Source: a virus. Taken from it: DNA of 14,383 bases. The position numbers and the translations under genes are program-made. This document shows, piece after piece, positions 6,746 through 9,119 of the stretch (position 1 is its first letter; each line of letters opens with the position of its first letter). The notes under the pieces are model-generated. The model worked only from the letters and a program-made list of their open reading frames with translations, did not search any database and was not told the origin of the DNA. The stretch lies in the UHGV virus genome UHGV-1359728; one strand, given 5' to 3'.

Positions 6746-7396
6746 ATGAATACACAACTGATGGGTGAGCGTATTCGCGCTCGCAGAAAAGAACTCAAGA
6801 TTAGGCAGGCTGCCCTTGGCAAGATGGTTGGCGTGTCTAATGTTGCTATTTCCCAATGGGAGCGATCTGAAACTGAGCCCAATGGCGAAAACCTATTGGC
6901 CTTAGCCAAGGCTTTGCAGTGCTCCCCTGATTACCTGTTGAAAGGAGAGGATAGTCTTTCAAACATTGCCTATCACAGCAGGCATGATCCAAGAGGTTCG
7001 TATCCTCTAATTAGTTGGGTAAGCGCAGGATGTTGGATGGAAGCTGTAGAGCCATATCATAGGCGTGCAATAGATAACTGGTACGACACAACGGTAGATT
7101 GTTCTGAAGACTCTTTTTGGCTCGACGTTAAAGGCGATTCAATGACTGCCCCGGCAGGACTGAGTATTCCTGAGGGGATGATTATTCTCGTCGACCCAGA
7201 AGTCGAACCACGTAATGGAAAGTTGGTAGTCGCCAAACTTGAAGGAGAAAACGAGGCGACATTCAAAAAGTTAGTTATTGATGCCGGTAGAAAATTCCTG
7301 AAACCACTCAATCCACAATACCCAATGATTGAAATCAATGGGAACTGTAAAATCATTGGCGTTGTCGTTGATGCCAAGCTAGCAAACCTTCCTTAA
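6746..7396 (+). CDS. c2: Prophage repressor, P22 C2-type (HTH plus S24 LexA-like autopeptidase domain)
   Basis: 216-aa ORF MNTQLMGERIRARRKELKIRQAALGKMVGVSNVAISQWERSE... with an N-terminal HTH, an Ala-Gly cleavage site (SAGCW) and the GDSM/K catalytic motifs. Very close to the P22 C2 sequence as I recall it. Confidence 0.93.
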   Translation: MNTQLMGERIRARRKELKIRQAALGKMVGVSNVAISQWERSETEPNGENLLALAKALQCSPDYLLKGEDSLSNIAYHSRHDPRGSYPLISWVSAGCWMEAVEPYHRRAIDNWYDTTVDCSEDSFWLDVKGDSMTAPAGLSIPEGMIILVDPEVEPRNGKLVVAKLEGENEATFKKLVIDAGRKFLKPLNPQYPMIEINGNCKIIGVVVDAKLANLP

Positions 7397-7600: not shown

Positions 7601-7709
7601 CAGAACTTGAGTGGTTTTGGGGATGGCGCGAATTGCAGCTGCAAGACAGCGATCGAGAAGATAAGCACCTCGACGCGTCATGCGCCAAAGCCACTTAAAG
7701 GAGACCATC

Positions 7710-8015
7710 ATGGTAACCATTGTCTGGAAAGAATCCAAAGGTACGGCAAAAAGCCGCTACAAAGCTCGCAGAGCAGAACTTATTGCCGAGCGACGCAGTA
7801 ATGAAGCACTGGCGCGAAAAATTGCGCTAAAGCTCTCTGGTTGCGTCAGAGCAGACAAAGCAGCATCGCTAGGAAGCCTTTGCTGCAAGAAGAAAGAAGA
7901 AGTCGTTCGAAAAAATAGAAGTATTTATTACAAAGATTCAAACCCATTAGGAAACAAAATACATGCAGTCCAAAAAATAAAATTGTACAGTAAACTACCG
8001 TACGGTGCTTATTGA
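7710..8015 (+). CDS. N: N-type transcription antiterminator (phage-21-like arginine-rich motif)
   Basis: From the ATG at 7710 (AGGAG 8 nt upstream) the protein starts MVTIVWKESKGTAKSRYKARRAELIAERR..., containing the phage 21 N arginine-rich peptide as I recall it. The C-terminus has the QKIKL motif. The track's upstream extension from 7680 overlaps nutL. Confidence 0.85.
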   Translation: MVTIVWKESKGTAKSRYKARRAELIAERRSNEALARKIALKLSGCVRADKAASLGSLCCKKKEEVVRKNRSIYYKDSNPLGNKIHAVQKIKLYSKLPYGAY

Positions 8016-8017
8016 GT

Positions 8018-8356
8018 ATGCTTATGGTGAAAAAGACTATTTATGTTAATCCTGACCGCGGACAAAACAGAAAAGTATCTGATAGAGGTCTTACATCTCG
8101 AGACAGGAGGAGAATAGCGAGATGGGAAAAAAGGATAGCATATGCATTAAAAAACGGTGTAACACCTGGATTTAATGCTATAGATGATGGCCCTGAATAT
8201 AAGATTAATGAAGACCCAATGGACAAAGTTGACAAAGCATTAGCAACACCATTTCCTCGCGATGTCGAAAAAATTGAAGATGAAAAATATGAGGATGTAA
8301 TGCACAGAGTTGTTAATCACGCTCACCAACGAAATCCAAATAAAAAATGGTCATAG
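8018..8356 (+). CDS. Hypothetical protein (about 112 aa), AT-rich gene between N and the tL1-like terminator
   Basis: Uninterrupted ORF in markedly AT-rich DNA. The N-terminal half is basic (RGQNRKVSDRGLTSRDRRRIARWEKR) and the C-terminal half acidic (EDPMDKVDK...EKIEDEKYED). The start is ambiguous (TTG 8012, ATG 8018 or ATG 8024) and the Shine-Dalgarno is weak. A terminator follows immediately. Confidence 0.55.
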   Translation: MLMVKKTIYVNPDRGQNRKVSDRGLTSRDRRRIARWEKRIAYALKNGVTPGFNAIDDGPEYKINEDPMDKVDKALATPFPRDVEKIEDEKYEDVMHRVVNHAHQRNPNKKWS

Positions 8357-8380
8357 CCCACTTCGGTGGGTTTTTTATTG
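8355..8380 (+). terminator. Rho-independent terminator (tL1-like)
   Basis: Stem CCCAC/GTGGG with a TTCG tetraloop (8357-8370), followed by TTTTTTATT. Confidence 0.7.
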
Positions 8381-8489
8381 TCTGAACAAACCTAATTTAC
8401 TACCGCAAGCCACGCAGTGAAATGGGTGTGACTTGTGTTGGTCGCCAGAAAATGAAATTAGGCAGCAAACCACTTATTTGAGGTGATAT

Positions 8490-8576
8490 ATGGAAGAAGA
8501 ATTTGAAGAGTTCGAAGAGCATCCTCAGGATGTGATGGAACAATACCAGGACTATCCGTATGACTACGACTATTGA
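8490..8576 (+). CDS. Candidate highly acidic, aromatic-rich micro-protein (28 aa)
   Basis: ATG at 8490 follows GAGGTGA. Sequence MEEEFEEFEEHPQDVMEQYQDYPYDYDY. The stop overlaps the start of the next gene by 17 nt. Not in the ORF track (under 60 aa). Confidence 0.3.
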   Translation: MEEEFEEFEEHPQDVMEQYQDYPYDYDY

Positions 8577-8760
8577 TAAAAATCAATGGTGTGGACAATT
8601 CAAGCGATGCAATGGATGCAAGCTGCAATCGGAATGCATGGTTAAGCCTGAAGAAATGTTTCCTGTAATGGAAGATGGGAAATATGTCGATAAATGGGCA
8701 ATACGAACGACGGCAATGATTGCCAGAGAACTTGGTAAACAGAATAACAAGGCTGCCTGA
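8560..8760 (+). CDS. ral: Ral-like restriction-alleviation protein candidate (66 aa, Cys-rich)
   Basis: 66-aa ORF with a CX5CX2CX5C motif (CGQFKRCNGCKLQSEC). Its position after N and before cIII/kil, and its length, match λ ral. Identity is by synteny and recollection, not search. Confidence 0.5.
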   Translation: MTTTIDKNQWCGQFKRCNGCKLQSECMVKPEEMFPVMEDGKYVDKWAIRTTAMIARELGKQNNKAA

Positions 8761-8799
8761 TGGTGGCCTTTATTTTTGGCATAAACAACAGAGGTGAAT

Positions 8800-8934
8800 A
8801 TGAACGCAGTTGAATTTACAAAATGGATGGCAGAGCAAGATATCACAGGAGCCGACGAAAAGGCTGTGTACTACATGGCTCTGCTATGGATTCACAAAGC
8901 AAAAGAGGCTGCAAATGCTCTTGGAGGTGAGTGA
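8800..8934 (+). CDS. Hypothetical small protein (44 aa)
   Basis: ATG at 8800 after GAGGTG. Protein MNAVEFTKWMAEQDITGADEKAVYYMALLWIHKAKEAANALGGE. Its TGA overlaps the next ATG (TGATG). Not in the ORF track. Confidence 0.4.
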   Translation: MNAVEFTKWMAEQDITGADEKAVYYMALLWIHKAKEAANALGGE

Positions 8935-9119
8935 TGTGCGAGTTTTATGAAGCAGATATCAAACGCCCAGAAATGGCAAGTGATGCGACATTACGTGATT
9001 ACTTCGCAGCAAAGTTCATGCAGGGAGTTTGTGCAAATCCAGACAGGCTTTATGACAACGAACCACTTGCTAAAGAAGCTTATGCGATGGCAGACGCAAT
9101 GCTCAAAGCTCGCGAATAA
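8934..9119 (+). CDS. Hypothetical small protein (61 aa)
   Basis: ATG at 8934 preceded by GGAGGTGAG (the ORF track starts at GTG 8931). Protein MCEFYEADIKRPEMASDATLRDYFAAKFMQGVCANPDRLYDNEPLAKEAYAMADAMLKARE. Confidence 0.5.
   Translation: MCEFYEADIKRPEMASDATLRDYFAAKFMQGVCANPDRLYDNEPLAKEAYAMADAMLKARE

Follow-up and report, generated by a model that had tools for sequence, protein, structure and literature searches.

Comparative evidence that phage lambda orf28, a reading frame overlapping ral, is an independently selected acidic microprotein gene

The orf28 reading frame in the window and in phage lambda

The window analysed here is the whole of a 14,383-nucleotide (nt) stretch of the virus genome UHGV-1359728, the + strand of which carries the early leftward (pL) operon of a lambdoid prophage or phage. 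Within this operon, a micro open reading frame (ORF) of 28 codons overlaps the start of the restriction-alleviation gene ral by 17 nt (Table 1). This micro-ORF is orf28 of phage lambda, the same gene and an already known one: its 87 nt match lambda orf28 (NC_001416 complement(34271..34357), lambdap47, NP_040623.1, "hypothetical protein") at every position, and lambda orf28 overlaps lambda ral by the same 17 nt, an overlap likewise found in phage 21, Sf101 and Phi75. An earlier description of the window, made from its letters and here called the sequence-only reading, had reported a micro-ORF with a good Shine-Dalgarno sequence that ends 17 nt inside a Ral-like gene; the coordinates and the Shine-Dalgarno sequence GAGGTGAT bear this out, and the identity with lambda's annotated orf28 was not recognised there. 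What is new in the present study is the comparative evidence that orf28 is a bona fide, independently selected microprotein gene, not the ORF itself, which has carried the label hypothetical from the first annotation of the lambda sequence onwards.

Table 1. Positions of orf28 and of the other features of the region, numbered along the window
Feature	Position	Strand	Remarks
orf28 coding sequence	8490..8576	+	ATG start, 28 amino acids, 3.7 kDa, TGA stop 8574-8576
orf28 Shine-Dalgarno GAGGTGAT	8480..8487	+	shares bases with the stop codon of the N remnant
ral Shine-Dalgarno AGGA	8548..8551	+	in orf28 codons Gln20-Asp21, 8 nt before the ral ATG; annotated ral ribosome-binding site in phage 21
ral, restriction-alleviation protein, 66 amino acids	8560..8760	+	PF11058, phrog_1055; +1 frame relative to orf28
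Terminator-like hairpin and T-run, second	8749..8778 (hairpin 8749-8770)	+	left arm is formed by the last ral codons
cI-like repressor	6746-7396		
N antiterminator	ORF 7680-8015	+	phage-21-type N-terminus, diverged C-terminus
Nun-like termination factor	ORF 8012-8356	+	phrog_5632, E = 5e-71
Intrinsic-terminator-like hairpin and T-run behind the Nun-like gene	8355..8380	+	stem 8355-8372, then TTTTATTGTC
Dead C-terminal fragment of a phage-21-type N gene	8386..8481	+	31 codons and stop TGA 8479-8481
Inverted repeat, left arm CCTAATTT	8391..8398	+	chance level, unconserved
Inverted repeat, right arm AAATTAGG	8455..8462	+	

The Shine-Dalgarno sequence of orf28, an 8-nt match to the anti-Shine-Dalgarno sequence, stands 2 nt before the ATG, with its GAGG core 6 nt upstream of it. 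The encoded peptide, MEEEFEEFEEHPQDVMEQYQDYPYDYDY, begins with an acidic run straight after the start codon (MEEEFEEFEE in the window) and contains 12 acidic residues (Asp or Glu) and seven aromatic ones among its 28, with no Lys or Arg, for a net charge of about −12, in agreement with the extreme acidity and aromatic content remarked on in the sequence-only reading. Judged by inspection of residue spacing, the peptide may comprise two helix-like periodic stretches with an invariant His-Pro between them, followed by a Tyr/Asp tail. An internal start at Met16 was considered and rejected, since no Shine-Dalgarno sequence is conserved before Met16 in diverged copies.

The peptide matches the PHROG family phrog_16060 ('unknown function') with E = 7.1e-19, residues 1-28 aligning to profile positions 1-28 of 28, and diverged and stand-alone homologues match the same family with E = 3e-7 to 4e-10. 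Searches of Pfam, NCBIfam and the PDB sequences at permissive thresholds returned no match to the peptide. The downstream gene was correctly labelled as Ral-like, its ORF matching Pfam PF11058 (Ral) over residues 1-66 of 66 with E = 1.6e-48 and 162.5 bits (gathering cut-off 25); Ral has no solved relative among the PDB sequences, and its background is treated in a 2025 EcoSal review (PMC12707154). The annotation of orf28 is uneven: the ORF is annotated in the records of Sf101 and Phi75 ('similar to phage lambda lambdap47') and unannotated in those of phage 21 and HK544. The region is present in 883 of 5426 complete E. coli genomes, and in none of these does the RefSeq annotation made by the Prokaryotic Genome Annotation Pipeline (PGAP) call orf28. 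Full-text literature searches with the name orf28 or lambdap47 or with the peptide found no functional study; unrelated ORF28s of other phages were among the hits, and a Δorf28-ral deletion appears in a strain list, where it serves as a cloning site (PMC2327257).

Purifying selection on the peptide frame, with and without ral

The sample used for the study of selection was anchored on Ral, not on the ORF, and consisted of P22-type Salmonella phages and prophages whose Ral is 66-80% identical to that of the window. A scan of genome contigs with a Ral alignment gave mostly lambda contamination and two useful diverged loci (L108 and L111). An ORF of 22-28 codons occupies the same place at seven of the ten diverged Ral proteins with fetched contigs and at both genome-scan loci, and these ORFs have a Shine-Dalgarno sequence, a start codon and an overlap of 11-17 nt with ral. 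Diverged peptides include MEEDIEEFDEHPDDDMRQYQDYPYEYDY (Providencia), MEDDIEEFDEHPDDDMSQYQDYPYEHDY (Proteus), MDEEEFDEHPADDMSQYQDYPYEFDY (Pantoea), MEEFDQHPDDDMSQYQDYRYEY (Erwinia) and VEDEFDEHPDDDMSRYQDYPYDH (Kluyvera). The pattern F-[DE]-x-H-P-x-D-x-M-x-Q-Y-Q-D-Y-P-Y-[DE]-Y-D-Y is kept, and synonymous sites are near saturation.

The proportions of nonsynonymous (pN) and synonymous (pS) differences were compared pairwise for 14 diverged loci, from lambda, P22-type phages and prophages of Cronobacter, Kluyvera, Providencia, Proteus, Pantoea and Erwinia. The comparison covered the 16 codons that precede the ral ATG and have no overlap with ral. At codon positions 1, 2 and 3, respectively, 4, 6 and 14 of 16 columns are variable (Fisher test, position 3 vs. 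positions 1 and 2, p = 5e-4), and in this Ral-anchored sample pS is 0.81 and pN is 0.13, corresponding to a pN/pS of 0.16. In one of the other five frames, every sequence pair contains in-frame stops; in the remaining four, some to most pairs do, and the stop-free pairs give a pN/pS of 1.5-4.4. Synonymous-site variation free of selection on the peptide frame had been named in the sequence-only reading as an observation that would refute the peptide; the variation found here reveals a peptide frame that is clearly selected.

In the family as a whole, length varies (22-28 amino acids) in whole codons, a start codon is present in all 53 distinct peptides, and a Shine-Dalgarno sequence of the GAGGTGA or the GGGG/GGAG type precedes almost all of them. 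The acidic N-terminal run is likewise found in all 53, its exact sequence and length differing; the best-conserved part is not this run, but the C-terminal two-thirds (HPxDxMxQYQDYPY...). Further copies were gathered by a degenerate-pattern scan of viral and metagenome contigs, the pattern of which fixes H, P, D, M, Y, Q, D and Y at 8-9 codons. The larger sample (58 sequences) gives a pN/pS of 0.14, which is only supportive, being pattern-biased; the unbiased figure is the 0.16 given above.

Structure at the RNA level was examined with RNAalifold on 13 diverged orf28-ral junctions, in an alignment that starts at 8460 with the arms of the upstream inverted repeat outside it, and no conserved structure was found (−3.25 kcal/mol). 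Because pN/pS is low and no RNA structure is conserved, conservation acts on the peptide, and the comparison of diverged relatives thus shows orf28 to be a real protein-coding gene with a selected peptide.

Two local RNA structures were also considered. Pairing of the two start regions (8487-8494 with 8555-8562) is possible in the window and is unconserved among relatives, for which reason it was rejected. An imperfect hairpin at 8569-8590 (ACTATTGAT/ATCAATGGT, 4-nt loop) encloses the orf28 stop and lies within ral codons 4-10; among 13 diverged relatives its stems hardly vary, with almost no compensatory change and negligible covariation, which gives no positive evidence of function.

Many of the copies found by the pattern scan have no ral behind them, and at least three kinds of ral-deletion junction can be distinguished. 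In the first, seen in 11 distinct sequences, the GGCTGCC terminator arm, normally located at the end of ral, stands immediately behind the orf28 stop; the second is a shorter form ending in ...QDYED*; the third has a different terminator. A terminator of the kind found behind ral in the window thereby lies directly 3' of the orf28 stop in ral-deleted relatives. The former ral ATG has decayed in these lineages to TTG or else to ACG, which for orf28 is a synonymous change (TAT to TAC), and the tail of orf28 remains YPYDYDY, YPFDYDY or YPYEYDY. The group with the first junction, which is the largest ral-deleted group, has a pN/pS of 0.12 on the 12 codons unfixed by the search pattern and of 0.14 on the last six codons, which formerly overlapped ral. 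Recent alleles of lambda type also combine an internally deleted ral with an intact orf28 (L187, L191, L209, L238 and L246). These comparisons show that orf28 persists under purifying selection without ral. Since it is retained under selection after the loss of ral, orf28 is more than a leader for ral.

The internal deletion of ral in the alleles of lambda type is recurrent and fuses ...WCGQ to ...YERRQ*, with the near-repeats GGACAAT and GGGCAAT apparently flanking the lost stretch; L191 additionally lacks 6 nt in the overlap.

Candidate roles of the peptide

We regard it as likely that orf28 is a real, selected, trans-acting microprotein gene, coupled to ral in the window. The gene is part of the early pL accessory region in lambdoid phages and prophages of Enterobacterales and encodes a strongly acidic, aromatic-rich microprotein of 22-28 residues. 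Transcription would start at pL and pass the terminator that follows the Nun-like gene by N-dependent read-through, and translation would start from orf28's own strong Shine-Dalgarno sequence, with ribosomes that finish orf28 probably also feeding ral. The selected product is the peptide itself, and linkage suggests that its most likely mode of action is in trans, on a protein of the host or the phage in early infection. Composition and linkage together suggest that it would most likely bind a basic surface of such a protein, and that the most plausible target may be the type I restriction-modification machinery, the area of action of its neighbours.

The link to restriction was further explored through the genes that accompany orf28. 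In most loci the ORF overlaps ral; in a single clade that lacks ral, the micro-ORF starts (with GTG) inside the last codons of a 77-amino-acid Lar-family protein, which matches PF14354 with 36.6 bits (cut-off 28.6) and phrog_599. Ral matches one Pfam family and the Lar-like protein another, neither hitting the other's family at E <= 0.1, and since the two differ in family, the micro-ORF is kept beside two different kinds of type I restriction-alleviation gene. The Lar linkage is suggestive of a connection with restriction alleviation, not statistical. If the trans-acting microprotein reading is taken as given, a link to restriction, as suggested by this linkage, is a substantial but minority possibility. 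The sequence-only reading had proposed that the acidity and aromatic content could fit a DNA-mimic or anti-restriction peptide, and what speaks for this possibility is linkage, to Ral in most loci and to Lar in one clade.

A more specific form of this proposal, which we put forward tentatively and consider doubtful on balance, is that the orf28 family may be a trans-acting anti-restriction or anti-defence effector, an acidic amphipathic peptide of ~25 residues that would work beside either Ral or Lar. With the same reservation, the peptide might bind a basic or DNA-binding surface of the host type I restriction-modification complex or of another target of early infection. T7 Ocr and ArdA offer a comparison, in that they share with orf28 extreme negative charge, carriage by mobile elements, early expression and linkage to anti-restriction; however, orf28 has no sequence or profile homology to them (no Pfam, NCBIfam or PDB match). 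It is also far smaller than either, and a 28-mer alone cannot reproduce their extended DNA-like surface. Closer in size is T4 Stp, a phage peptide of 26 residues which acts on the type I restriction-modification enzyme EcoprrI. Like orf28, Stp is a very small peptide made early by a phage, and the linkage of orf28 to restriction genes would allow a functional analogy, although Stp is not known to resemble orf28 in sequence and is not acidic.

If the effector proposal is true, orf28 would be among the smallest phage counter-defence proteins, one unnoticed in lambda for over 40 years, and modulation of restriction or of another early host target by such a peptide would extend the anti-defence repertoire to very small peptides. 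In one recombineering study, cloned ral alone had little effect (PMC9410887), and orf28 could bear on this weak effect. With orf28 recognised as a real gene, a neglected annotation in the best-studied phage lends itself to a cheap, well-defined experiment.

Several observations weigh against these readings. All Lar-linked copies have one architecture and represent a single evolutionary event. The copies retrieved by pattern are biased at the 8-9 fixed codons, and statistics there are skewed. Knock-down of orf28 by CRISPR interference, in a host without type I restriction, gave no plaque phenotype and classed the gene as non-essential (PMC10695390), a result that fits an accessory gene and yields no function. 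In a Citrobacter-type module, an unrelated ORF of 66 amino acids replaces orf28 5' of ral, and in Kluyvera georgiana ral lies directly behind a Shine-Dalgarno sequence with no orf28; ral thus exists without orf28 in some lineages, and the two genes are linked but separable, not obligate partners. Finally, P22-type phages combine a lambda-identical orf28 peptide with a Ral clearly unlike lambda's in its central part, which argues against tight co-adaptation of orf28 and Ral. The Citrobacter-type ORF (MAKITFGFC..., in L113, L114 and L126) has the same kind of Shine-Dalgarno sequence and an ATGA stop/start overlap, and it matched no Pfam or PHROG family.

The sequence-only reading had offered, as another possibility, that orf28 is a leader coupling translation into ral. 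The geometry fits this idea, with the ral ATG and its AGGA inside orf28 and an overlap of 11-17 nt kept in ral-linked relatives. Ribosomes that reach the end of orf28 are 14 nt beyond the ral ATG, and orf28 contains the ral AGGA, so that translation of orf28 probably boosts that of ral in the window. In loci that lack orf28, ral either is coupled to a different ORF in front of it (ATGA overlap) or directly follows a strong Shine-Dalgarno sequence, which suggests that ral generally relies on upstream translation signals. In its pure form, however, in which only the act of translating orf28 matters, by delivering ribosomes to the ral start or by unmasking it, the leader explanation is improbable and is contradicted by the comparative data. 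Leaders that act through translation only do not conserve amino acids, whereas here amino acids, not nucleotides, are conserved (pN/pS 0.16, synonymous sites being nearly saturated); lineages that have deleted ral keep the ORF, equally constrained, and no conserved RNA structure masks the ral start. Translationally coupled upstream ORFs and leaders of phage operons resemble orf28 in the stop/start overlap and in the location of the downstream Shine-Dalgarno sequence inside the upstream ORF, but orf28 differs from them in having a peptide under purifying selection and in surviving without the downstream gene.

About as improbable is the view that the acidic peptide is a partner or chaperone of Ral, binding this mildly basic protein (isoelectric point about 8.8) and required for Ral to be stable or active. 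In most loci the two genes lie side by side, overlap and are co-transferred, their products are opposite in charge, and natural orf28::ral fusions exist (P0001 and P0005, see below). However, orf28 is constrained where ral is gone and ral exists where orf28 is absent, and the pairing of an identical orf28 peptide with a clearly diverged Ral in P22-type phages stands against it. The fusions, moreover, lack the conserved DYPYDYDY tail, and sequencing errors or dead alleles may account for them; the AlphaFold model of fusion P0001 is uninformative, being of low confidence (mean predicted local distance difference test score, pLDDT, 63; predicted template modelling score, pTM, 0.39).

These natural fusions, 89 amino acids long, were found in Logan assemblies as P0001 (76 member sequences) and P0005 (5 members). 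They have the form MEEEFEEFEEH[QP]QDVMEQYQ-TIR-MTTTID... and arise by a 1-nt deletion in orf28 codon 21; a real allele and a sequencing error that recurs are both possible explanations. A programmed +1 frameshift at the orf28 stop, which would yield an orf28-Ral fusion in the window, was rejected: the frame geometry permits it, but TAT-TGA is not slippery, the context differs among relatives, and stand-alone copies have nothing to fuse to.

Less probable again is a regulatory nascent peptide, in which the run MEEEFEEFEE would cause ribosome pausing or abortion, either by intrinsic ribosome destabilization or in a form relieved by the ABC-F factor EttA; at this same low likelihood, orf28, and ral through coupling, would track Mg2+ or the energy state. 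According to three reports, consecutive acidic residues near the N-terminus destabilize the ribosome and ABC-F proteins relieve this effect (PMC11162784, PMC11282234, bioRxiv 10.1101/2021.02.02.429294), and the acidic start run is common to all family members. However, the best-conserved part of the peptide is its C-terminal two-thirds, and the stand-alone copies have a terminator directly 3' and nothing downstream to regulate. A literature search found no experimental pausing or abortion data on the orf28 sequence.

Very improbable, finally, is a spurious ORF held open only by constraint at the nucleotide level (the ral ribosome-binding site or a recombination boundary sequence), for although orf28 is very short, is left unannotated by PGAP in the 883 E. 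coli genomes, has no knock-down phenotype and carries the ral Shine-Dalgarno sequence, it shows third-position variation, in-frame indels and a pN/pS of 0.12-0.16, ral-less lineages included; all 53 distinct peptides keep a start codon, and nearly all a Shine-Dalgarno-like run.

The upstream stretch and the neighbouring genes

The sequence-only reading, in which the ORF, its Shine-Dalgarno sequence, its overlap with ral and its composition were all correctly described, had also pointed to an 8-bp inverted repeat in the stretch upstream of orf28 as a possible structured leader or binding site. The repeat exists and its first arm is at 8391-8398, but the second arm had been placed 2 nt too low, at 8453-8460 instead of 8455-8462. 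The repeat does not exceed chance expectation: 72 of 500 dinucleotide-preserving shuffles of the 133-nt intergenic stretch contain a perfect inverted repeat that is 8 nt or longer and has a loop of 3-100 nt. Nor is it conserved, two of the eight positions of the left arm being changed in phage 21 and the whole stretch being missing from lambda in the alignment. The idea of a structured leader or binding site formed by this repeat is consequently unsupported, and the intergenic stretch is not a leader. Both arms lie within a dead fragment of an N gene, for positions 8386-8478 are the remnant of a phage-21-type N C-terminus, translating to TNLIYYRKPRSEMGVTCVGRQKMKLGSKPLI, where N of phage 21 ends in ...NRIYYSKPRSEMGVTCVGRQKIKLGSKPLI. 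The fragment has no start codon, and an in-frame stop lies upstream of it, which makes it a non-translated remnant. The same fragment, with the Shine-Dalgarno sequence and ATG, precedes quite different genes in HK97 (gp45) and in 933W-type phages, and for this reason it behaves as a recombination 'boundary sequence' common to many lambdoid phages.

Between N and orf28, lambda has sieB, whereas the window has the Nun-like gene, its terminator and the dead N fragment there; the peptide, the DNA, the position 5' of ral and the 17-nt overlap are the same in both. Immediately in front of orf28, lambda retains a short piece of the boundary sequence from the N C-terminus (…TTTACTACCGCAATCCACTATTTAAGGTGATAT) despite the intervening sieB, and this variant, …TTTACTACCGCAATCCACTATTTAAGGTGATAT, is exactly shared by 18 of the fetched viral loci.

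The start of the Nun-like ORF overlaps the stop of the N antiterminator gene, both genes being carried by the same prophage, and the same arrangement of N and Nun is annotated in phages mEp235 and mEpX1. Transcripts must read through the terminator behind the Nun-like gene to reach orf28 and ral. After the ral terminator come ORFs of 46 amino acids (8794-8934; phrog_24660, E = 4e-35) and 62 amino acids (8931-9119; phrog_2201, E = 5e-15), both of function-unknown PHROG families.

Some database entries with lambda-like sequence appear to be misattributed. The record 'Campylobacter phage CJLB-4' (MW057783.1, 48,361 bp) is 98.3% identical to the lambda orf28-ral region and, from its lambda-like length and match position, is probably lambda or a mislabelled record. 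A lambda-identical ral also occurs on small contigs, or on contigs of roughly 48.4-48.5 kilobases, in assemblies of unrelated bacteria (L089-L112), for example Pseudoxanthomonas, Nocardioides, Shewanella, Paenibacillus, Bradyrhizobium and Kitasatospora, which looks like contamination with lambda control DNA.

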